A stretch of DNA of 63,996 nucleotides, the filler included, from Basidioascus undulatus (lineage: Eukaryota): the NCBI GenBank assembly GCA_000826855.1. It is 6 parts of 6 records of this genome, joined end to end, with 100 filler letters (N's around TTAATTAATTAA, not from the genome) between each part and the next. Parts side by side here need not be neighbours in the genome. Positions count along the whole stretch, not along the records: positions 14,671 to 42,307 come from JTLS01000159.1; 5 more parts are not named here. One strand, given 5' to 3'. A program made the translations under genes and the position numbers. Positions 8,290-49,617 of this stretch are shown piece by piece; positions within the stretch are counted from its first letter, which is position 1; each line of letters opens with the position of its first letter. Below the pieces are notes generated by a model. The model had not been told where the DNA came from. It did no database searches and saw only the letters and a program-made list of their open reading frames with translations.

Positions 8290-9331
8290 TCAAATCCCCG
8301 CATGCTCAACAGCATACAATCCGAGCTCCTCCCGCTCTCTCTCGCCGCATCCCTCCGGGTCGCCCTCGCGCGCACACCACACCCTCCTGACCCTGCACGT
8401 TGCGTACAACTTGACCCAGCTGACCTCGCGGAAGCGTCCCAATGGCGCGGCACCCTCGCCGTCGGACAGTGCGGCGTCCCCGAAGTGCGGGAGGAGCGCA
8501 GCGAGGTTGAGCGAGACAGTCGACCAGGGCGTAAGGGTCGATGCGGCGCGCCGGGGCGGGAGGCGGAGCGGGAGGTGTAGGAGCGGTGGGTTGTGCGTGG
8601 GGTGAAGGGTGGCTATTGGCTGGAGGGAAGGAGAAGAGTCAGCGCTGTTATGGAGGGGCTGGAACACCGAATGGCCGTGTACCGTAGGGAGCGACGAGCG
8701 CTATGTCGCACTGTGACCAGGCACGTCTTCCTCCACAAGTAGCTCGGCGCCATGAAAGGAACAAGCACATGCATGCGCGTCGAAGATGCACATTCCTCTC
8801 CAAAAATTGCCTCTCTGACTTCTTCGACGTCCTTTCAACACCCTCCTCGGGACTTACCTGGAACGTGCTGCACCTGATGACCCCCGTCCTTCCAGTGGTG
8901 CCCACCACGCCCACCTCTACCGCCAGCGGCCTCCCCAAATCCTTCACCTGAAAGTGTACGAAACCGAGCTCAATCCCAAGCCCCTCGGGCGCGGCGCCTT
9001 CGGGCGGGCAGCGAATGTACGTCGTGGGAAGCGTGGGCGACTGGATGTGCAAGACGGGATGGACGATGTCCCCGCGCGGGTTGGAGGGCGTCTTCGGGCG
9101 CAGGTCGAGCCACGGTGGGGGCGGGGAGGCGTCAGAGGGGAGAAGCGTGATGAGCGAATCGGTTGGGAGAGTGGGGTCCGTGTGCTCCGACCAAAGCTGC
9201 AGCGGGTGCGAGGAGAGGGTGGACAGCAGCGTGAGCAGCGGGGGCTGGGAAAATGGCGCAAGGTGACGTGTTAGTGCGGGAAAGGAAGGGAATTGAAGAT
9301 GCAAGTTTACTTGGACTGTGGCCTTGAACAT
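8290..9331 (-). CDS. CFAP20: CFAP20/BUG22 (DUF667) family protein, 3 exons
   Basis: MFKATVQ|PPLLTLLSTLSSHPLQLW...TYIRCP...GLGIELGFVHFQVKDLGRPLAVEVGV...IRCSTFQ|...LHLPLRL...WSTVSLNL...VKLYATCRVRRVW is colinear with CFAP20 motifs (MFKNTFQ, PLQIW, TYITCP, HANCRIRRVYF). Confidence 0.85.
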
Positions 9332-10228
9332 CCTGCGGGCGAGATGTCGGCCGGGTGGTCACGGAACGGCGAGGAAGATGATGGTCGAGGGCAAAGGGCC
9401 AGGCAGGCAACGCATAGCGTTGTTCTCCTTCCCTAAGTCCTCGCTTGTCTTGTCTTGTCTTTGCAGTCGCTCTCGTACTGCAGACCATAGTTCTAGTGGC
9501 TGAGTTTCGACAAGGTAAAGCTTTCCTGACTCATGGACACCGGCATAACCTGTTTGTAAACCATTGCACAGGGAGCGTCGGTACATACGGCATCGGTTGC
9601 CTGCCTTACACAGCCTTATGGAGCCTTCGACCACAGTTCATCTGTGAATGCATAAGCAAGTTTGTGTTCCAGATCGGGCTCTTCTCCTTCCCCTTGCTCG
9701 GCAAGTTACTGTGAAAGACTGTGGACGCGGTTGGGAGAGCTGGACTATAGTCTAGTGGCGGCAGACTGCACATTCGCATATCCCCTAGTGTCTCACAATC
9801 TTCTCTTGCTGGAATATGTATATTGGACGTCGAATACATTCAGTATACAAAGCAGATATATTGATTTTGCACATCGAAGGCAAGAAAGCCGCAGGACTTG
9901 TTTGCTGGTCGGCACCACACTGTGACTGCCAACAAACCCTTCAAACGACGATCATGATGCGAACAGTGATTCCTGATTGATGTGACCTACGTATGCGGAA
10001 TTAAGTTGGTATGAAACTTTCGCGGCCTTCCCTCAGACTGCGGCATCGACGGTCTCTCAGTTGTTAGTACCCTTTGCCTTTGTGCCCCTTTGGGAAGGTC
10101 TCACCATATCACCGTTGTCAAACCAAGCGTGTTGCTGTCTTCAACTTCGCTCTTGTTCTCCCTCCTTGCTCTCGTTCGAACCCCGCTTCTTTTTGTACTC
10201 CACCTCTCGCCCATCGCAGTCGCCTCTC

Positions 10229-16450: not shown

Positions 16451-19313
16451 AGCGTCGGCGAGGACATCGCGTACATCGAGAGCCAGAGCCACGGCTTGCA
16501 GGTCCAGACTAGCAACCAGAAGGCGCTGCTCGGCGAGCTCGAGCGGCTGCTGGTCCGTTTCCCCTTCCCCTTCTCTCCTTTCCCTGTGCTTTTTTCGGGA
16601 ACTGACTGTATTGGGAATGCGCGGCAGTCGACAGTCCACGTCGACCAGGACGCCCTCCTCATCCTCACTCAGGAGAGCCTCGAGTCCGAGCGCGGCGTCG
16701 CAAACCTCGAGCAGGCTGCCGCAACGCTGTACAAGGCGCTCCAGGCCGCGCGCGACAGCGGTGCGTCTTCCCCTCTTCTCCTCTCCACTCCACTCGTGCT
16801 TCTTTGCTGAGGGGGGTGGATGGGAACGCACAGCTGTAGGAGAAGCAGCCGCGTCTGACCGCGTCGACGAGTACCGCACGATCTCGGGCCAATTTGCGAA
16901 GCGCCTGCTCGACTACCTGTCGATCATGTTCAAGTTTCAGGTGCGTCTCCCTCCTCGTTTCTTCCGAGAATGCGAAGCGGCTGAACCAGGGATCCTGGGG
17001 TGGGGTAGGCCGAAAGCCTCCTGACGGACAAGCTGCGCGCCATAACGCGCGACAAGCCCACCATCCTCCCGCACGACCAGATGGAGAACTACCTCGGTAG
17101 GTACTGCGGCCTTGTCCTCTGGCTCCGCGAGATGGACGAGAAGCGGTACCAACAACTTTGCGCGGTGCGTCGCGTCCGCCCCACACTGATTTGTGTTGGT
17201 ACTTTGGGAGGGCCTGGGGGCTTATGTGGGGGCGGAGAGGGCAGAGCTACTTCGCTGCGGCCAGTGATCTGCACGGGAAGGAGATGCGCTCCGTCTTGGG
17301 CGTCTACAAGGACCTCGTGCGGAAGGCGACGGAGGAGGAGAGCGAGGCTAGTGCGTGTAGCACCGTGCGCGGGTTCCTCGCTGGGCTTACTACAAGGGCT
17401 GAACGCGGCGTTGCCTTTGCTCGTCTGCAGACTTCTCGGCTCCGCCCGAAGCGGCGCAGAAGTCGGGCGCGATGAAGCGGGCGGGCACGATCGTCCGCGG
17501 CGGGCCTCGCGACTCGAAGCGCGACCGGCGGGGTGAAGAGCTGCCCGCGTCGGAGGTGAGATTTTTCTTCACGCACTTGCTGTAACTGTGAGCAGGTTTC
17601 TGACCTCCACCCGACGCGTGTCCCAGGCCCTCTCGCGCGCCCTCGCGCAGATCAGCCCCCCGATCTACCGGGAGCAAGCGTTCCTGACGGACCTGCTGCA
17701 CGTCGTCGACGCGCCGCCGACGTTCGCAGAGTACATGGACCTCGAGACGTACTTCCGGCGCAAGGCCGCGCTCGCCGCGGCCGAGACGAGCTACGGCCCG
17801 CTCGCGGACGTCCGCAACGCGCTCGACCTCATCTTTGGCTTCCTCGCGCCCGAGCTCCAGGCGTGGGTCGACGCGGCGCTGGTGAAGGATCAGATGTACG
17901 TGTGTAGGAGGGGGAGGGAGAGTTGGGCTGATGAGCTGTGGAGTGTACAGGCAGATTGTTGGTATACTCGCGGCGATCGAGAGGACGATGCTCGATGCCC
18001 AGACTCGCGGGCAGACGTTTTTGCATGGCATGCTCGACAAGCAGCACAGGCGCCTGTCGCTCCTGCTCACTCGCTACATCGTGCGTGGCTGGCGGTCAGT
18101 AGGCTGTGGCTCTGGGGGCCGAGTGTTGACTTTGGGGCGCGGGGGACAACAGACCGACCAGATCAAGGCGATCGAGCAGACCAAGTTGACGATCAAGAAA
18201 CGCAAGGGCGTGTCGTCGTTCATCCGCATCTTCCCCGTGCGTTTCAACTCCTTCCTGACCCTCTGTCCCGATTGCAACCTCGATTCGGCTCTGACGGACG
18301 GCAACTGCTCGCCAGGCCTTCGTCGAGCGCATCGAAGCGCAGCTCACGGACGTACCCGACTCTCTCGCGATCCGCGGGACCGTCAACGAAGCCTACGGCC
18401 GCATCGTCCAGCGCATGTTTGAGCTCCTGCAGCAGATGGCGCGCGAGGACGGCGCGAGCGCGGAGGCGGCCGCGGAGGACAAGGAGCAGCTCAACTACCA
18501 TGTTCGCCATCTTCCCCGAGCTCATCCCCACAAAACCGGATACGCTGACTGTCTGGATTGCAGGTCATTCTCGTCACCAACGCGTTCCACTTCCTAAACG
18601 TCCTCGCGCCCAAGCGCTTGCGCGCGCTCGAGCCGTTCGTTGCGCAGGCCAAGGAACTGTACGACAAGAACCTGGACGTCTACGTCAAGCTGCTACTGCG
18701 CCGGCACGTCGCGAAGCAGATCGTGCGTGTCGTCTTCTTAAAGAGGCGTCCTGCAGGACGCTGACGGGTGGGCGCGGCTTTGCAGGACTTTTTCGAGGGG
18801 GTCGAGCGGCAGCTGCAGTCGACGCCGGCGGGCGAGGTGCAGCTGCACGCGACGTACAACCGTGCGGCGCTCAAGCGCGTGCTCAAGGATTTCACAGCCA
18901 AGGACCTCCGCAAGGCGTGCGACGCGCTGCACAAGCGCGTCGAGAAGCACTACGAGGCGAGCATTGACGACGAGGGCGGCGTTGCGGAGGCCCTCAGGGT
19001 CATGGACACTGTCTGGAAGGCGCTCGAGGCGTGCGTCTTACCTTCCTCTCGGCCAGGCTTGACGAGTACGACTGTGGCGCTGACTCGGAATGCGGCGGGC
19101 GGGCAGCGAGATGCTCAAGGTCAGCGAGAACTGGGCGAGGCTCCTCGAGACGTGCTACTCGGACGTGCCCGACGGCCTGCAGTATACGCTCAGCGACGTC
19201 AAGGCTTCCTTCGTTCGTTGGCTGTTTCTCTTTTGTTCTGTCTCGTTACCCTTCCGGGGTTGATGCTGACTGTCAGGTGCTGGTGCGAGCAGAAGCGCAG
19301 CGCTATGGCGTGA
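16451..19313 (+). CDS. SEC3: Exocyst component Sec3, C-terminal (Sec3_C) part only, multi-exon
   Basis: SVGEDIAYIESQSHGLQVQTSNQKALLGELERLL; MENYLGRYCGLVLWLREMDEKRYQQLCA; QIKAIEQTKLTIKKRKGVSSFIRIFP; EDKEQLNYH; DFFEGVE; LHKRVEKHY. Stop at 19311-19313. Confidence 0.92.
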
Positions 19314-31905: not shown

Positions 31906-32198
31906 AACGTTCCGATAAGCGAAGGCTGTGAGGTGAAGAAAGGGGGATGATGAGGGACGATGAAGTGGTATGGAACGAGGAGGCGCATTCTCGTTCTCTT
32001 CATGAGGGCAGGCTTGCAGGCCGCGGATATTCTGCGGATTGCTCCACGGATTGTTCCACGGATCGCTTCCATCGCGCGTCTCCGCACCGACCACTCGCGA
32101 CTTCGCCATCACCTTCTCCATCCTCAATCCCGTACACTTCATTCCCTTCACGCTCGCTTTCTCATCTCGATCACGCTAACAAACTCGGTCTTGCCAGA
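31906..32198. promoter_or_regulatory. Compact bidirectional promoter (SR factor / NDUFA6)
   Basis: 293 bp between divergent ATGs; four CGGAT motifs at 32024, 32035, 32047 and 32059. Confidence 0.6.
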
Positions 32199-32856
32199 AT
32201 GGCGACTATTCCCTCTCGTCTCGCTGCTGCCACGCGCACCTCGGGCTCGTTCGACGTCGCCCGCAAGCGCGCACTTACTCTCTACCGCGACTGGTACCGC
32301 GCGGTGCGTCTGAGCGAGCTCTTCGTCCGTCGTGACCGCAACAGCGTCTCATTGGAGTGCCATCGCGATCAGGCCCCCAGCATCATCACCCTCTACTCTC
32401 TTAACCTCCCCCCGTCGACCATCCGGGCCAAGGTCAGGCAGGAGTTCGAGAAGCACCGTCACCTCGACGACCTCAACGTCATCGACCTCGTGCTGCTCAA
32501 GGGTCGCCAAGAGTACCAGGAGACCATGAACGTTTGGAAGCAGGAGACGCACCTGATGCGCTGGTTTATGGCGGAAGAGGTACGTCGTCTTCTGTATCGA
32601 CTCCTTGGGTGCTCTGGGGGACCGCATCTCATTCTCCTCTGCGTCCATTACTCGCCAGGCACCAGGTACGCGTCCTCTTACAGCGTCAATTTACCCCGGG
32701 AAACTTATTCTTACTGTTGTCTACGCCCATCAGCCAAGCCTCAGACCTTTTTGGAGAAGTTCTACGCAGGGTGGGTGCAACTGCTCACGAAGCCGCACCG
32801 CCGTAGCTGATGTTGATATCTTCCGTTTGTGTAGGCGCGACGAGGACCAAGTTTAG
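32199..32856 (+). CDS. NDUFA6: NADH:ubiquinone oxidoreductase alpha subcomplex subunit 6 (B14/LYRM6)
   Basis: RKRALTLYRDWYRA|APSIITLYSLNLP...IRAKVRQEFEKHR...VIDLVLLKGRQEYQETMNVWKQETHLMRWF...FLEKFYAG|RDE. Confidence 0.95.
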
Positions 32857-33410: not shown

Positions 33411-33446
33411 GAACAAAGAGCAAACAAACAAAGGGATGATGACTCA
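33411..33446 (+). promoter_or_regulatory. Cluster of HMG-box sites including a pheromone-response-element match ACAAAGGGA, plus TGACTCA
   Basis: GAACAAAGAG (33411-33420), ACAAAGGGA (33428-33436), TGACTCA (33440-33446), ~150 bp upstream of the STE14 ATG. Confidence 0.45.
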
Positions 33447-33583
33447 GCGCCTCCCTCACAAATGCCAGTCGCGTCTCGCCGCCTCGCCATCTCCATCTCT
33501 TCCCTCCTTCCCGTGTTCCTTCGACTCGCTCACTCGGCCTTCGCCTTCGCTTCCCTAATCCTCATACTTCCATAGGATCGACA

Positions 33584-34645
33584 ATGGCGACACCAGCGCC
33601 TACGCCGCTTGAAGGGCAGACCTCTACGCCAGCCCTGGACCGATCGAAGTCCGGCACAGCGCTTTACACCTTCCAACTCGCCAATCCTCCACACGTCCAC
33701 CAGTCTCTGCCCAACACGCCATTTGCCATATCTCTCATTGCCTTTGTCCTCGGCACGGTCTTCAGCCCGTCGCTCATCCTTGGCTTGCGCGTCCTTGGCG
33801 TCTCGGCTTGGGAATGGGTCGGCGAGCACGGTTCGGGAGGACAGTTGGCTCTGTACTTCGCGGTCCTTTCATGGTTCCACCTGTGGGAGTTTCTGAGCAC
33901 GGCGGGTTGGGGGCCGAGCAAGCTGTCGGTTGATTGTGAGTGGACCTGCATGTTAAACTGTCACCTCACGCTTACAATCGTGCTCGTCAGCGTATCTTCT
34001 GAACAACGGTTACGACTACGCCTTCGCTCACGTCTTTGGCCTTGCAACGCACCTCATCATAATGTACCTTTTTCCCTCGTTGAGACAGACAGGGTGGTGG
34101 ACGATTCTGGGTGCGTTTCCCTGACCACCTTGTCCGGAGCTTGTGCTGACTTGTCATGGTGCCAGGCCTGCTGTTCGTCGTTCTCGGACAGGTCTTACGC
34201 ACACTTGCAATGGTCCACGCGAGCGAGAGCTTCAGCCATTTGGTGGCACTGCAAAAGAAGCAAGATCACGTCCTCGTCACTACCGGCGTATACTCGTGAG
34301 CTTGCACAGAGTTTTTTCCCGGTTCACTTGACAAACCTCCCTTCCATCATCAGATACTGGCGCCATCCCTCATATTTCGGCTTCTTTTATTGGGCGATCG
34401 GCACGCAACTTCTGCTGTCGAACCCTATCGGCGCTTCCGCTTTCGCCATTGTGCTGTGGAGATTTTTTTCGCATCGTATCAAGGGTGAGTTATGCGGCAG
34501 GCGGGCGGGTTGGCGTTTCAGGTATCACATTCTGACAATGCATGGAACGGTGGCAGTGGAAGAAGTCTATTTGGTCAAGTTCTTCGGGAAGGACTACGTA
34601 GCGTATCGCGAACGTGTCAGGACCTGGATACCGCTTATTCATTGA
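33584..34645 (+). CDS. STE14: Protein-S-isoprenylcysteine O-methyltransferase (ICMT), multi-exon
   Basis: FHLWEFLSTA; FLLNNG-type exon; RHPSYFGFFYWAIGTQLLLSNP; EEVYLVKFFGKDYVAYRERVRTWIP. Confidence 0.95.
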   Translation: MATPAPTPLEGQTSTPALDRSKSGTALYTFQLANPPHVHQSLPNTPFAISLIAFVLGTVFSPSLILGLRVLGVSAWEWVGEHGSGGQLALYFAVLSWFHLWEFLSTAGWGPSKLSVDCEWTCMLNCHLTLTIVLVSVSSEQRLRLRLRSRLWPCNAPHHNVPFSLVETDRVVDDSGCVSLTTLSGACADLSWCQACCSSFSDRSYAHLQWSTRARASAIWWHCKRSKITSSSLPAYTRELAQSFFPVHLTNLPSIIRYWRHPSYFGFFYWAIGTQLLLSNPIGASAFAIVLWRFFSHRIKGELCGRRAGWRFRYHILTMHGTVAVEEVYLVKFFGKDYVAYRERVRTWIPLIH

Positions 34646-38108: not shown

Positions 38109-39285
38109 TCACAGCATGTCGTCAAGAAACGCTTCGTCGTCTTCGCGTGACCCGCGCGATCCGTCACCAGGCCCGGCTAATGCACGAAAGGGCGGCAACT
38201 TGGATGCTCGCGCGCTTATGTGAAACGGTATGCCACGTCCGCGGCCTGCAGATGCCTTCGGTGGTAGAACATGCGCCTTCGGCGGGCCTGACGCTGCAAG
38301 GAGGCGCTTGCAGGATCAGCACCTGCGCGTCAGGACAGAGGACGAAAGACGCAGCTAACTCACCTCCGTCAGCGCTCGGTAGATTTGAGAACGCCAGATT
38401 GTCGTCCATATCAGGAGCGTTCGTGGCACTGGGAGAAGCGGAAGAGGGGCGCGACCGCGTTGGGCGACTCTGTCCCATCGGAGGCCCCCTGAAGCGCGCT
38501 TTCAATTCTGAAAAGGAGGGTCGGTCAGTTATGCAATAGGGTCGTCAGGAAATGATCCCGCACCCCACGTTGCCTCCGCTTTTTCGCGGTCTGCCTGCAG
38601 AAGGCGTAACTCCTCGGCCTCGCCGCGGCCCAGCTGCAAGACAGTTCGCGACACAGCCTTGTTGTCATGTCGTAGATGGCCGAGCGTTTCATCGATGTCT
38701 TCCTCATCGAGATTCGGCGACGCCGATCCCACAAGGGGCGCCTCGTCGTCGTGCAGACGGGCTGCTTTAGCCAGGAAAGCGGAGAGGTCGACCTCGGGTT
38801 CTGGGTCGGCTTCTTCTGCAGGTACATTGCGACGTCAAGTCTGGCGGCCATGATTTGGAGGTTGGACGAAGGATTACCATAAGGATCAGGCTCGGGTTCC
38901 TCGTATCGATAAGCGTTGCTGGCGAGTTGTCGACGAGAGAATTGAGAGCCGGCGCCGACCTCTGCGAAGCAACCCTGCATCAGACACACTCCTGAGCAAC
39001 CTCAACAATTGCATACTGTCTCCATCCGACGGCGGTGAGCTCTTCGCGTGGATCGAGTCCGTCTCTCCGTCCGCGTCATCGGTTACATCTTCCTTAGAGA
39101 GTTTCGGAAAGGCCGCGTCGTCGCGCGCTGACGGTGGCCTGGCGCGGCCGCGCGAGTCATGGCCACCCCGACCGCGATTGTAGGCACGCGACGCTCGAGC
39201 CTTGTACTTGTTTTGGAGAACCACTGTAGAGATAATCCAGATTCAATGATCTGTCGATCGAACGGTGAGAAGCTCAACACCGACT
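38109..39285 (-). CDS. Conserved hypothetical protein, candidate AVEN/RIPR(CER16)-like
   Basis: Spliced product (M)VLQNKYKARASRAYNRGRGG...|...FSRRQLASNAYRYEEPEPDPY|EEADPEPEVDLSAFLAK...DEEDIDETL...EKAEATW|ELKARF...EDDEAFLDDML*. The gene model is well supported; the AVEN link is inferred from motifs. Confidence 0.7.
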
Positions 39286-39657
39286 GGATCAGTGGATGTC
39301 GAGGAGCTCCAGCGAGAGGAGAGCTGAACTGTGAGACTGGTCGAGATGAATTGACGGAAGCACGATGAGGGCGATCGAGTGTTTCGTATGAGTTCCAAAA
39401 CGTGTTAAGGGAGATGAATGAGGAAGGACTGCAAGGACGACGACACGGCGGTTCGTGTTGGGCAAGCAGCAAGAAAGCACCCGATAGTCCGCGGATTGTC
39501 CAGGGTTTTTCACTCGACTCCACCAACACCTCGCGCCCAACGCCCTCCTCGACCAGGCGTTCAATCCCATCCGTCCGTCCCGGTTAGAGCCCATTCGATC
39601 GTCTATCAAGCCGTTAAACGTCTCTATCGATCCGCTCTCTTCGTTCACGTCTCCGCG

Positions 39658-41068
39658 ATGCAAAGCCACATTCGCGAGGTCTGGGCCGACAATCTCGACG
39701 AGGAGATGGCCATCCTCCGCGGCCTCGTCGACCGCTATCCCTTTGTCGCCATGGTAAGTCTTTCCTGGGGCGACCTTTCTAATCCGTGCCCAGCGGACGC
39801 TCAACGTGGCCGCCCTTATAGGACACGGAGTTCCCCGGCGTGGTTGCGCGGCCTATCGGCACCTTCAAGACTTCGTCCGATTATCATTACCAGACTCTCC
39901 GCTGCAACGTCGATCTGCTTCGCATTATCCAGCTTGGTCTTACCATATCCGATGAAGACGGGAACATGCCTGAGGCGGCGACGTGGCAGTTCAACTTCCG
40001 CTTCAACCTCAGGTGCGTCGGCTGCCTTTGTACCCATTCAAGCCGTAAGGGGAACGTTCGTCCTAGGAGGATGGGAGGGAGGGGAAATGGGAAGGGACTG
40101 GGAGGGGAACCAGAGGGGAATGAGGGGGGAATAACATCCGAACATTGTTGGAAGCTTTGATACGAGGAGACATAGCCACTTCCTGGGGCTGAGGAACGCG
40201 TTGATCAAACAAAACCTCACTCCTGCAACGTTCGCTCACATCCTGCTGCTTCCCTCAGCGACGACATGTATGCGCCCGACTCGATCGACCTCTTGACAAA
40301 ATCGGGCCTCGACTTCAAGCGGCACGAAACGCAGGGCATCGACGTCGATCGTTTCGGAGAGCTGCTCGTTACGTCCGGTTTCGTACTGGTAGACGATGTG
40401 CGCTGGATATCGTTCCACAGGTGCCTCTTCAAACAGCGACTTTGTTGAAGTCAGCGTGCTAACATAACGCGACTTCCCTCCGTAGCGGCTACGATTTCGG
40501 CTACCTCTTGAAAGTCCTCACCGCCTCTCCCCTGCCCGCTTCCGAGTCGGACTTCTTCGACATCCTCCACGTCTGGTTCCCCGGAATCTACGACATCAAG
40601 TACCTGATGAAAACATGCCGGACACTCAAGGGGGGGCTACAGGACGTTGCCGACGATCTTCAAGTAAGCCAGAACCCGCGTCACTCTACAGAGGCATGGT
40701 TTGACTTATTTCTCCAGGTCGCTCGCATCGGACAGCAGCATCAAGCTGGCTCCGACTCCTTGCTCACTTCAGCTGCCTTTTTCAAAATGCGCACAAAGTA
40801 CTTCGATGGGAGGATCGATGATGAGCGCTTCCTGTACGGACTTGTCTCGCTCTTGAACGCAGCGCGTCGAGTGCTAATCTATATCACTTCCGGAAGCGGC
40901 TACCTTTACGGCATCGGCCCCGCTGCACTTGCCAACTCAGCCAACTCGCAGTCAGCTTCGATGCCCTTTACACCCATCAACAACCCTCTCCCAACCCCGT
41001 ATGTTGGTCAAGCACAGCCATCAAATCATTTCGCGAGCAGGACACCGGTCGGATGGGGTGATCGATAG
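39658..41068 (+). CDS. CAF1: CCR4-NOT deadenylase subunit Caf1/Pop2 (CNOT7/8)
   Basis: [13 protein letters not shown]...[18 protein letters not shown]...[19 protein letters not shown]...[32 protein letters not shown]. Confidence 0.97.
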
Positions 41069-41408: not shown

Positions 41409-41520
41409 ATTGCCACAGTTTCTAGCAGCTTCCACTCCATTGCCACAGTTCTAGCAAGCTCTACCCCATTGCCACAGTTCTAGCAGGCTCTACTCCATTG
41501 CCACAGTTCTAGCAGTTTCT
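41409..41520. repeat. ~29-bp minisatellite, 4 copies
   Basis: attgccacagttctagcaRgctctacYcc units start at 41409, 41439, 41468 and 41497. Confidence 0.92.
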
Positions 41521-41859
41521 GTCCTCAACCTGTAGTGTCGCATCTATCGAACAGCACTCAGCTGCTGAGTGAGGAGCAAGTGTATATTATTGAAAAAAAG
41601 GAAAGTCGAGATGATGAAGTAGCCCTTTTATCATAGCTTCAAGAACAACAATGTGGAAGAGTGTTTGTTGTGCAGGAGCGAAAGAATAACACAGGTGAAG
41701 GGGCCATGTGAGTGCAGGGGAAATGGACAACATGATCGAAGGGGATAAAGACACAATCACATGCAACTTCAAGGTGAAAGAAAAGTAAAGCACGGAGGGC
41801 GAAGAGCGGAGACGATGCAAAGTGTCAAACAAGAAGGAAGATGAGAAAGGGAAAGAAGT

Positions 41860-42307
41860 GTGCATGTCGATAAGCTTGAGTCTGGCTTCGATCAGTGTGG
41901 AGACTGGGTTGCAGACAGCCATGCTGAAGCGGGAGAGCATGTTGAGGAGGTACTGGCACTGAGAGAGAGTGTGTGTGCCCTGTACACTGTCACACTTGAT
42001 CTGGACACCCAGGATGTACTCCGCCTCACTGAAGTCCTTCATCTCATACTCACACTTGAGGAGCTCCTTGATGTGGCGGACAAAGTCAAGGTCATTGCTG
42101 ATGACGACCTTGTTGTCAACATAGATGCTGAGGATGCAGACGAGGGAGCCACAGATGAGGATGAACATGCAGGGGTTGGCACAAGACTTGGAGAAGCTGT
42201 CAGGACTGGGCTGGGCAAGACAGACTGCAGCAGGGACTACCAGCAGGGTTGGTGACAAGATGCAGGATGTATGGCGAGGAATAGAGGACAAGGCTAAGAG
42301 GAGGGCA
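41860..42307 (-). mobile_element. Ty1/Copia reverse-transcriptase relic, hypermutated
   Basis: FSKSCANPCMF...ILSIYVDNKVVISND...IKELLKCEYEMKDFSEAEYILGVQI...LSQCQYLLNMLSRFSM...NPVSTL matches the RVT_2 core, with YVDD changed to YVDN. The whole 41110-42307 tract is CpG-poor. Confidence 0.9.
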
Positions 42308-42407
42308 NNNNNNNNNNNNNNNNNNNNNNNNNNNNNNNNNNNNNNNNNNNNTTAATTAATTAANNNNNNNNNNNNNNNNNNNNNNNNNNNNNNNNNNNNN
42401 NNNNNNN
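42308..42407. other. Artificial scaffold spacer
   Basis: 44N-TTAATTAATTAA-44N. Confidence 0.98.
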
Positions 42408-46142: not shown

Positions 46143-46706
46143 AAGTCGCGGTCGAGCGACTTCAAAAGACTCTGCTGGCGGGAACAATCGTGTCCATAGT
46201 AGCGAGAGCCCATCGTGTCGTTCCTATGGTTCCTTTTAATTTGGAGTTCAGATTAACGGACGTGCATGGACTTGATGATTAGGAAGTTGCTGCAAGTGCG
46301 CAACCGGATCGCAGCCAGTCAAGCCTCGTGTTCTGTTCCACCGTTGTGAAGATTCCTCATGCCTCCTTTACTCAATGTAACTGTCCGATCCCGAGGCGTT
46401 TTGCGAGTTCTGCCGGCCTCAATTGTCAAAGGCCGATACGGGAGTATGACCTGCAGCCGCCCAGTAGTACCCCGTACCACCTTCGACAGTGCCAGCAAAG
46501 TTGTCATGCACCGACGGCATTCGTACACAGCACTGCGACGGGCACTTTCCGGCCGTGCCTAGGTACTTAGCGGTTGTGTCGCTTCCACACCATCATTCCA
46601 TTAACGGCTGCCCTCGAAACCTAACAAGCCCAATAAGGGGGTATGAATGCGAATATGCGAAACACAAAAGGCAGAATCACCAAAAGGCTGCTGCCGAGAA
46701 ATACGA

Positions 46707-49617
46707 TCATGATGCCACGCGCAGGAGATCCAGCGCGAACATAGTCGAAATCTCCTGGCAGAACGTCGGATCTTGGAAGAGGTCGTGAAGAAGGATGACT
46801 GTTGCATAAAGAGCAAGCAGCGGAGCGTTAGTCCTCGTCTGCAAAGATAGGCTACAGGAGAGCGAAAGCCATCAGTGAACGCACCCGCATTCCGAGTCGC
46901 CGTGTCGCCCATCGACGCCGAGAGCCCCCGAGGCTTCGCCTTGATGAGCAGCTCGCGCGCCTTGAGGTACGTCTCGCGCTTCTCCTCGTCCGTCCGGTTC
47001 TCATCGGGCCCGACATACCACTCGCGCGCGGGCGGCGGCCACAGCGCGTCGCGCGTGCTCCGGATCGCGCTGGCGATGTTGTCCACGTCCGTCATGTCCA
47101 TCACGGCGGACTGCAGCGCGCTGCGGATCACGCCCGAGTAGGAGGAGCGCACGACGCGCTCAAGGACGCGGAACTGTCGGCCAGCAGCACAAGGAGCAAG
47201 TCGTCAGCCGCGTAAGGGGCAGGTGAGACGCAGAGAACTACACGTACGAAGCCGCGACGGATGGACCACTGCTGCCCAGCGAGCTGGTACGACTCCTCGA
47301 GGATGGAGAAGATGGCGTTGAGGACGAGGTTCAAGTCCTCGTCACTGATCTTGGGCGCGTTTGGCGGCGCGGGCTGTACCTTCTCCGGCTGCTCCACGGC
47401 GGGCGGTGCGGGCGAAGTCGGACGCGAGATGACAACCGCGTCCTGGGCCGCGAGGGAATCGGTCGACTCGCGCGGGGACGCCGCGCCAGTGACCGACGCG
47501 GGCGCGGACGGCGGGGCAGCAGTCTCCCCTGAGGCCGACGGTGCCGGACTGACCGCTTCAGTGGGCGCAGCGGCAGATTCGACCGGCACGGGCGCGGGAG
47601 GCGCAGCAGCGGGCTCGAAGACTTTATCGACCGCCGTCGTGCTCGCGCTCGGGGTGGTCATGCTCGTGCGTGGCTCGCTCGCAGGCGCAGGCGGCGCCGG
47701 TGCCGTTACGGCGGACCCGGATGAGACCAAGTTCGTCGATGAGATCGAGCCTGCGCGGGGGGACGAGGACGCCGCGGCTGCTGCTGCGGTCGCCTGGCGG
47801 CTCACGCGCTTCTTCGCTCCGCCGATGTCGGTGATGGCCTGCGTGAGCTGCGAGAAAGGCTTGGCCGTCTTGCCGAGGTCGAAGAGCTTCGCCTTGGCCG
47901 CGCTCGTCTTTTCTTTGTTCAGGAACTGTTCGAACAGCGAAATTCATCCCATCAGCACGCGTAGAGAGGATCTGTGTGAGGGAGCAAGTGTGGGCAACGC
48001 ACGTCAAGGACGAGGTCCGACTCGGAGTAGCGCGGGTCGGTGAGCAGCGTCTTGAGGTACGCGCCGAGGAGCGCGCAGACGTCGGCGCTCTTCTTGAACC
48101 GGAGCGAGGGCAGGAACGCCCGCGGGAAGTCTTTCGTCCCCGCCTGAGGGAACGCTCGCTGCAACGCGGCGTCGAGCTTTTCGAACTCGGACCTGTTTTC
48201 CGGACACCAGCTCTTCAGTCACCGATCACGCAGAAGAGAGCGTCGGGAGCACGAGGTGCAGGGGAGACTCACCACTTGCGGAAGAGCATCCACCCCGCCG
48301 CGCACTCCTCCTCGATAGCGATCATGAGCTCGAGCGTCTTGGCCTGTACGAACCCGTCGCCACCAGCATCGCCTGAGACGTCCGTGACCTCGACCTTGAC
48401 CTTCCTCTGCTGCTCGGCCTTGCTCTCGCTCGACGCGCGCGCCGTCTGCTGGAGCGGAGGGGGCGCCATCTCCTCAGGCGAGAGAGGAAGCTCGATGTCG
48501 CCTGATGCGGACCCGAACTGGAGCGTCGGCTGCTCGGACGACAGAGGCGGAGGCGGAGAGTGGTAAGTCCATTGCTGCTGGTGCGGCGAATCGGACGACG
48601 TCTGCTCGCGGATGGTGTACGGCGCAGGGGCGGGAGTGGGGGAGGAAGAGGAGTCGGACCAGGGGTTAGAAGTGGAGACGTCGGCATCGTCCGCGGGTGG
48701 GATGTTGGACGGGAGACGGGAGGCAGCGAAGAAGCTGCTAGTGCTGCTGTTCCCGCTCCCTCCCTTCCCGCCAGGAAGGAACTTCTTCAACCCGCTCAAC
48801 GACTGCTGGCTCGAGCGCCGTTCCGCAGCTGGCGGGCGCCGGGCCTGCTCCTCCATGCCCTTGTCGTTCCCCGCCGCAGCCTTCGAGCGCCGCGCCTGCT
48901 GCTCCGTCCGGAACGCCGCGTACTCCCTCTCGAGCTTCGCGTTCAGCTCGAGCTCGATGGGCGCGAGGACCGTCACGCGCGGCTCGATCGCCACGCGCTC
49001 GCGCGCGGAGCGCACGGCTTCGGCGAGCGCCGTGTCGCTTGACGAGGCGAGTGACTCGCCCGCGCGCGAGAGGAGCGCTTCGGCGTCTTGCTGGAAGATC
49101 TGCGGTGTCGGAGTCGTGATGGCGACGATCTCTTTGAACTGGGAGAGAGAGAACATGTTTCAGCCGAACGTCTATGAGCGAAGGCGATGGGAGAAAGAAA
49201 GGGACAAAGACAAAGACGTACAGTGGACAGCTGCGTAAGCAATCGCAAAAGCCCTTCCCGCCCGCGGCTCTCAAGAAACCGTTCGAACTCGTCATACACC
49301 TCCGACTCGTTCCTGCTCGCCAGGACCTCACGCAGCCCGGGCGCCCCGCCCGACGCGGCGGACTGTTCGGCATGGAACGCAGCGGGCGAACCGAGGTCGC
49401 CGTCTGGTTCGTGAGCGCGCGCCCGCGAGGTGGAACGCCGCGGCGGCGAGGAGGAGAAGGCGAAGGAGGCGAGGTCTTCTTCGGATTCGTTCAGGTGAAG
49501 GGAGAAGGTGGGCGCGATCGTGGTTGGAGTTGTTGGCGCAGGCGCAGGTTTCGGAGGGGGGGAAGGAGCACGGGTGGGAGACGGAAGAGGGGGAGGGGGA
49601 TAACTGTACTGTGACAT
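46707..49617 (-). CDS. Sorting nexin-like protein (RGS-like + PX + Nexin_C; Mdm1/SNX13-14 related); N-terminus uncertain at the gap
   Basis: LREVL...YDEFERFLE; GWMLFRKW|SEFEKLDAALQRAFP...LPSL...LGAYLKTLL; IFSILEESYQL...WSIRRG; IRSTRDALWP...RTDEEKRETYLKARELL. Confidence 0.8.

Follow-up and report, generated by a model that had tools for sequence, protein, structure and literature searches.

Does a basidiomycete encode a counterpart of the cell death regulator AVEN, and is that gene functionally paired with the CAF1 deadenylase gene beside it? The question is raised by a locus of Basidioascus undulatus (assembly GCA_000826855.1), at positions 38109..41068 of a 63,996-nucleotide stretch joined from six parts (the whole stretch being the window). 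The locus runs from the stop of a minus-strand AVEN-like gene to the stop of CAF1 on the opposite strand, and an earlier note had read it as an AVEN-type SKI adaptor co-regulated with CCR4-NOT. We consider it probable that the minus-strand gene is real, intact and intron-containing, that its product is a divergent basidiomycete representative of the AVEN family (PF28377), namely a largely disordered protein of ~290 residues with an arginine-glycine (RG) patch, that this protein may act in mRNA surveillance, and that its adjacency to CAF1 is incidental.

Gene structure and family membership

Stop-to-stop frames and translation yield a minus-strand gene of five exons at 38109-39223, with a split start codon possible at 39285 and a product of ~290 residues. 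The RG/RGG patch RGRGGHDSRGRAR, the segment FSRRQLASNAYRYEE, the motif VDLSAFL and a terminal DEAFLDDML followed by the stop codon, all reported in the earlier note, were found in the minus-strand translation in the place and order given there. These motifs sit in different frames, which are united by four GT..AG introns of 55, 62, 56 and 70 nucleotides; the resulting spliced frame encodes 290 residues and is closed by its only stop, and introns 1-4 each have a YTGAN/YTGAY-type branch-like site ~18-26 nucleotides before the acceptor.

The coding part of exon 1 (39017..39223) carries the RG/RGG patch at 39176-39138, and is followed by intron 1 (38962..39016; GTATGC..TCGCAG) and by exon 2 (38878..38961), which contains the family signature FSRRQLASNAYRYEE at 38941-38897. 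Intron 2 (38816..38877; GTAATC..CTGCAG) leads to exon 3 (38564..38815), encoding EPEVDLSAFL (VDLSAFL at 38792-38772), the acidic stretch DEEDIDETLGHL and, ending in ...REKAEATW, one half (the first) of a long helix. Intron 3 (38508..38563; GTGCGG..TTTCAG) is in phase 1 (G/GT ... AG/A., slashes marking the junctions), and exon 4 (38364..38507) begins with (E)LKARFRG, which extends the long conserved helix and corresponds to the family consensus DLK.RFrA. Intron 4 (38294..38363; GTGAGT..TTGCAG) has a CTGAT 26 nucleotides from its 3' end, and exon 5 with the stop codon (38109..38293, stop at 38111-38109) encodes an insertion of ~40 residues, described below, and DEAFLDDML at 38138-38112.

Searches that began from exon 3 placed the protein in a family. 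Exon 3 had two phmmer matches at E<=0.001 among 1.84 billion representative sequences (P0001 and P0002; E 5e-4 and 9e-4), both of them single-exon metagenome fragments, "hypothetical" or unnamed, whose ends coincide with those of exon 3. A profile of these three sequences (A1) retrieved 78 full-length Agaricomycete proteins of 223-293 residues (E 2.7e-36 to 5e-11), together with one 710-residue fusion, and eight metagenome contigs (L001-L008). Against a hidden Markov model of 65 well-modeled Agaricomycete relatives (A2), the spliced protein scored 84.5 bits (E 4.6e-28 at Z=1; model positions 15-196 against residues 11-204). Because 200 shuffles of the spliced protein reached at most 7.5 bits against the same model, the resemblance to the family is well beyond chance. 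Single exons scored 39.8 bits (exon 3), 23.5 bits (exon 2) and 1.7 bits (exon 1). By blastp, 152 of 153 fetched proteins matched (E<1e-3); the matches listed were 36-45% identical over 120-170 residues. A word-index search among longer proteins with exon 3 alone scored none of 507 candidates, and a Pfam scan of the five exon translations gave no family at E<=10 in a library release that does not include PF28377.

The window protein aligns collinearly with its relatives all the way from the RG box to the C-terminal residue, with non-repetitive conserved blocks over ~200 residues: KY.RAR..RG..RP; [KQ][YF][SA][RK]R.L..N..RY.E.EP; EPEVDLS.FL; the acidic D[IV]D..L.H; EKA.AEA.W-[DE]LK.RF; and, in an acidic-hydrophobic C-terminal helix, E.FLDD[LM]L. 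The RGRGGHDSRGRAR patch aligns with the family RGG box ...KYLRARGRGRGGGRPAEF, and the C-terminal DEAFLDDML with the family consensus E.FLDDLLG. Agaricomycete "hypothetical proteins" such as CC1G_04961 of Coprinopsis cinerea (P0032) and GLOTRDRAFT_110955 of Gloeophyllum trabeum (P0079) are collinear with the window protein, with which they have in common the signature, EPEVDLS.FL, the long helix, E.FLDDLL and the phase-1 intron. As judged from these comparisons, the window protein is a clear member of a basidiomycete family.

The relatives also bear on the splicing. The phase-1 intron after ...EATW lies at the same codon, following ATW or AQR, in all four related metagenome loci examined (L001, L003, L007 and L008), and annotated Agaricomycete proteins run W-D/E-LK.RF uninterrupted over the junction of exons 3 and 4; because position and phase of intron 3 are kept and the relatives' proteins read across the junction, the splicing does more than make the frames readable as one. 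Exon-2-like and exon-3-like matches also lie ~85-110 nucleotides apart in all eight related loci. We regard gene and splicing as supported, at the level of sequence, by comparison with relatives.

Assignment to AVEN and a proposed role

The family carries an AVEN annotation almost throughout. Precomputed annotation places PF28377.1 on 73 of the 78 relatives retrieved with A1, and on all of the best 120 of 486 matches to A2 (E<=10), those 120 being Agaricomycete proteins without exception. In the ESM Atlas, which uses Pfam 38.1, PF28377 is "AVEN" and is found on 79% of a 63-member basidiomycete cluster that scores 0.98 to P0079 and is named "Cell death regulator Aven domain-containing protein"; AVEN is carried by 15 of the 30 clusters nearest P0079. 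A query with the motif-bearing part only reached a top score of 0.83, under the tool's reliability bar. The profile match of the spliced protein and the presence of PF28377 on nearly all fetched family members bear out the earlier suggestion of an AVEN homolog.

The novelty that the earlier note saw in such a protein holds in part. Literature searches on fungal AVEN, on fungal focadhesin and on AVEN/FOCAD/RST1/RIPR gave no paper on a fungal AVEN member, but Pfam 38.1 already includes this assignment of the family. In the literature, cited here and below from excerpts of the papers, AVEN is called metazoan-specific or "conserved from mammals to flies" (PMC8894942, PMC7083229).

Weaker neighbors of P0079 in the ESM Atlas, below the reliability bar, were a 358-member ascomycete "hypothetical protein" cluster (~306 residues; 0.86) and DUF5364 clusters (0.82-0.85); the ascomycete neighbors could be diverged counterparts or noise. 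The DUF5364 lead was dropped: no DUF5364 match was present among the 25 listed of 41 families in a Pfam scan of the 65 aligned members, and no paper on DUF5364 was found.

An AlphaFold2 model of P0079, built on the alignment of 65 sequences, is for the most part of low confidence and has a mean predicted local distance difference test score (pLDDT) of 65 and a predicted template modeling score of 0.22. It contains a long helix at 160-190, a block with pLDDT ~95, and shorter helices at 61-70, 104-110 and, C-terminally, 225-237; in the window protein these helical elements correspond to ...EELRLLQADREKAEATW / ELKARFRG, the VDLSAFL region and DEAFLDDML. Two runs of a two-copy complex prediction with the C-terminal 94 residues of P0079 gave a score of 0.00 and no verdict on self-association, with controls not folded. 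According to the model, the architecture is that of a disordered adaptor, combining an RG patch of RNA-binding type with a few short docking elements. This is reminiscent of human and metazoan AVEN, which likewise has an N-terminal RG/RGG patch and is otherwise largely disordered with short conserved elements. The fungal protein differs in being shorter (~290 residues, the relatives 223-293) and in its RG patch, which is much shorter than the 73-residue human box.

What human AVEN does suggests how the fungal protein might work. In human AVEN, an RGG/RG box at residues 1-73 binds G-quadruplex RNA and undergoes methylation by PRMT1, and polysome association depends on it (PMC4561382). The SKIV2L pathway includes both AVEN and FOCAD, and AVEN has been proposed to prevent ribosome stalls (PMC7083229, PMC8894942); as accessory subunits of the SKI complex, the two are mutually dependent and stabilize SKIV2L and TTC37, a dependency exploited in cancer work (PMC11864970). 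By homology, the RG patch of the fungal protein would most likely contact RNA or ribosomes, and the conserved helices would most likely provide docking to a folded partner within the cytoplasmic machinery of translation-coupled mRNA surveillance. Either the SKI complex itself or, should the fungus have one, a FOCAD-like scaffold could be that partner. The term "SKI adaptor" draws on homology only. Within the window, no SKI, exosome or FOCAD gene was found among the 20 long open reading frames (ORFs) scanned against Pfam, out of 80 ORFs of at least 150 residues.

Other small proteins linked to the SKI complex offer looser comparisons. Arabidopsis RIPR/CER16, the partner of the plant FOCAD homolog RST1, is a functional analogy only: it is small, has no known domains and binds the FOCAD homolog and the SKI complex (PMC6711988, PMC8116306), and the excerpts describe it as unrelated to AVEN and without homologs outside flowering plants (PMC8116306, PMC6711988, PMC8894942). 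Ska1 of S. cerevisiae is likewise a small fungal SKI-complex accessory protein; its homologs are given as limited to S. cerevisiae and close relatives, unlike the family described here (PMC6711988).

Weighing alternative readings of the locus

Several observations weigh against assigning an AVEN gene here. The window protein is the most divergent family member seen: its RGG box is short compared with those of the relatives, the KGK...I.WD block is poorly matched, and Tyr (codon 38909-38911) stands in place of the Asp of N.DRY (D80), which all 65 of 65 relatives share. At the remaining family-invariant positions (R73, N78, R81 and Y82) the family residue is retained, and FSRRQLASNAYRYEE thus keeps R, N, R, Y and E of R..L..N.DRY.E. 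Exon 1 lacks an in-frame ATG, so that the start needs a candidate split codon. The link of the window protein to animal AVEN runs through the relatives' precomputed annotation and an automatic cluster name. Finally, the FOCAD/RST1 family is reported from plants, metazoa and amoebozoa, and excerpts of the same papers describe it as apparently absent from fungi (PMC6711988, PMC8116306), so the AVEN-FOCAD-SKI mechanism may not simply transfer. The window copy further differs from its Agaricomycete relatives in missing their initial RGRGRGKSRGGLG segment and in carrying, in exon 5 (~38150-38290) before the C-terminal helix, the insertion of ~40 residues with a second RG patch (GRGRG), which none of the aligned relatives has. 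This divergence suggests, on the residues compared, a basidiomycete lineage outside those sampled, and, with every splice site and the reading frame intact, it points to a divergent lineage rather than a decaying gene. If instead the basidiomycete family had no true homology to animal AVEN, its PF28377 matches would reflect RG-rich, acidic low-complexity composition and short convergent motifs, and the function would be unrelated, for example in the nucleolus or in ribosome biogenesis, or as an RNA chaperone of generic RGG type. Such a reading fits a protein that is mostly disordered, and a family compared with AVEN through annotation rather than through a metazoan AVEN sequence, AVEN being metazoan-specific according to the literature (PMC8894942). 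It also fits the generic searches: in the PDB the exon-2 ORF had no match and the A2 profile matched only SmD3 RG tails (E 0.1-0.2) and one nitrate reductase (E 0.69), while a scan of the 65 aligned members with an older Pfam library that does not include PF28377 gave weak noise (BNIP2, HSCB_C, FoP_duplication and others; E at least 0.0037). However, PF28377 is recorded on 193 of 198 listed proteins rather than on a few, the conserved blocks are non-repetitive and collinear, AVEN clusters make up half of the 30 nearest in the ESM Atlas feature search, and human AVEN presumably has its motifs in a similar order (RGG, S[KR]R.[LI].SN..RY, D[FL]S..L and a C-terminal [FW]LD..[ML]). We therefore judge non-homology improbable and retain the assignment to the AVEN family.

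A different reading is likewise possible for the 5' end of the model, which is itself inferred because of the missing ATG in exon 1. We favor a candidate 5' intron at 39224..39284 on the minus strand (61 nucleotides, GTCGGT..CTACAG), whose removal would join A39285 to TG39223-39222 and produce an ATG; such a split start codon is likely, judging from the nucleotides around it. The candidate intron resembles the other four in size, has a TTGAA branch-like site 20 nucleotides before the acceptor, and has a guanine-plus-cytosine (GC) content of 0.46, against 0.61-0.64 in exons. Beyond it would lie the 5' leader and the intergenic region shared with CAF1 (39285..39569), the minus strand lacking any ATG over 39569-39161. 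When the 284-nucleotide stretch 39569-39286 was shuffled 5000 times, just 176 of the shuffles (3.5%) contained no ATG, which fits a leader kept AUG-free. The model could still be wrong if translation began at a near-cognate codon in 39242-39224, at ATG 38980 or in an undetected upstream exon, or if the N-terminus were decaying. The ATG at 38980 lies within intron 1, in the reading frame of exon 2, and the 151-codon frame that it opens runs through that exon and would yield a protein without the RG patch; the first minus-strand ATG past the leader, at 39160, is out of frame; exon 1 alone scores poorly against the family profile; the donor GTCGGT and the branch-like TTGAA are weaker than the signals of the other introns; and relatives have 15-25 extra N-terminal residues, including RGRGRGKSRGGLG. 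Against these stand a full-length profile match that begins at residue 11 of the model, within exon 1; the alignment of KYKARA..RGRGG..SRGRARP with the family box KYLRARGRGRGGGRP; a codon-position GC pattern in exon 1 (0.68/0.56/0.68) resembling that of exons 2-5 (0.71/0.53/0.60); the ATG-free leader; the intron-like length and low GC of the candidate intron; and the five upstream ATGs that a start at 38980 would leave in the leader. On balance an error at the 5' end is rather unlikely, though it deserves more weight than non-homology, and we keep the split start codon. An upstream exon with ATG 39594 and donor ...TGGA/GTCGAG was also considered; it is in frame, but would need an intron of ~290 nucleotides and a start ~65 nucleotides from the CAF1 ATG, and was judged unlikely by eye. 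The ATG at 39160 opens a 25-codon ORF (39160-39083) inside exon 1, which would be an upstream ORF only if the true start lay further downstream.

The neighboring gene on the plus strand is a CAF1/POP2 deadenylase gene of several exons at 39658..41068, with its ATG at 39658 and its stop at 41066-41068; start and stop were confirmed, and two exon ORFs match Pfam PF04857 (CAF1; E 6.9e-11 for 40463-41068 and E 4.4e-05 for 39822-40160), in agreement with the divergent CAF1 gene described earlier. The spacing of ~370 bp given for the two starts is obtained only with the split start codon (39658-39285 = 373); counted from the codon that first follows the upstream in-frame stop, the distance to the CAF1 ATG is 416 bp. 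A head-to-head arrangement at 373-416 bp, of two genes whose products both act on cytoplasmic mRNA (CAF1 by its Pfam family, AVEN by PMC7083229 and PMC11864970), could be taken as a co-regulated mRNA-surveillance pair with a shared bidirectional promoter. The related contigs give this idea no support. When five CAF1 exon pieces were searched by tblastn against the eight homolog-bearing contigs, none matched at E<0.05. Five of these contigs reach 1.2-2.9 kb upstream of the exon-2 motif, CAF1 in the window starting ~700 nucleotides upstream of exon 2, and in L003 and L007 the ORFs lying upstream are unrelated to CAF1 and have no clear Pfam family. The eight contigs probably represent one to three lineages, L002-L006 having the same identity value and L003/L007 near-identical neighbor ORFs, which makes this a thin test of synteny. 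Head-to-head neighbors are common in compact fungal genomes, and about a quarter of adjacent gene pairs are divergent by chance. A conserved CAF1 linkage was thus not borne out, nor was the co-regulation with CCR4-NOT proposed in the earlier note; we consider a functional pair very unlikely, and the position of the AVEN-like gene beside CAF1 most likely incidental.

An 11-bp repeat, GGGAGGGGAAT, occurs in five copies at 40077-40132, apparently in the second CAF1 intron, and a 29-bp tandem repeat (3.7 copies, 89% match; 41409-41515) lies between the 3' end of CAF1 and a Ty1/copia-type reverse transcriptase fragment (Pfam RVT_2, E 5.4e-13) on the minus strand at 41587-42306, just downstream of CAF1 and adjoining N runs at ~42307-42400. 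Other genes of the window appear to be of ordinary eukaryotic housekeeping type: a CFA20 domain gene (8648-9358, minus strand), Sec3 C-terminal (17537-18967, plus), a LYR family gene (31932-32810, plus), ICMT (33443-34645, plus) and a sorting-nexin C-terminal gene (46601-47203, minus).

Implications for the AVEN family

That the family occurs in Agaricomycetes as well as in this basidiomycete, which is more distant, is recorded in Pfam 38.1 and was not found in the literature searched. Because Pfam already holds the family assignment, the gain is a lead for experiments and not a new kind of discovery. If many mushroom-forming fungi have an AVEN-family protein, of which the copy here is a divergent one, the family would be older and wider than papers say, which raises the question of what AVEN binds where FOCAD is missing.

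We suggest, tentatively and as one possibility among others, that AVEN is not a metazoan invention: it may be a cofactor of ancient origin, dating back at least to the opisthokonts, that Basidiomycota have kept and that works either without FOCAD, its only known scaffold, or with an unrecognized fungal FOCAD-like protein. In the former case, AVEN would have an ancestral, FOCAD-independent mode of docking on the SKI complex or the ribosome, the candidate elements being the long helix, which is invariant, and the FLDDLL helix at the C-terminus. Either way, the AVEN branch of translation-coupled mRNA surveillance would gain a fungal model amenable to genetics.

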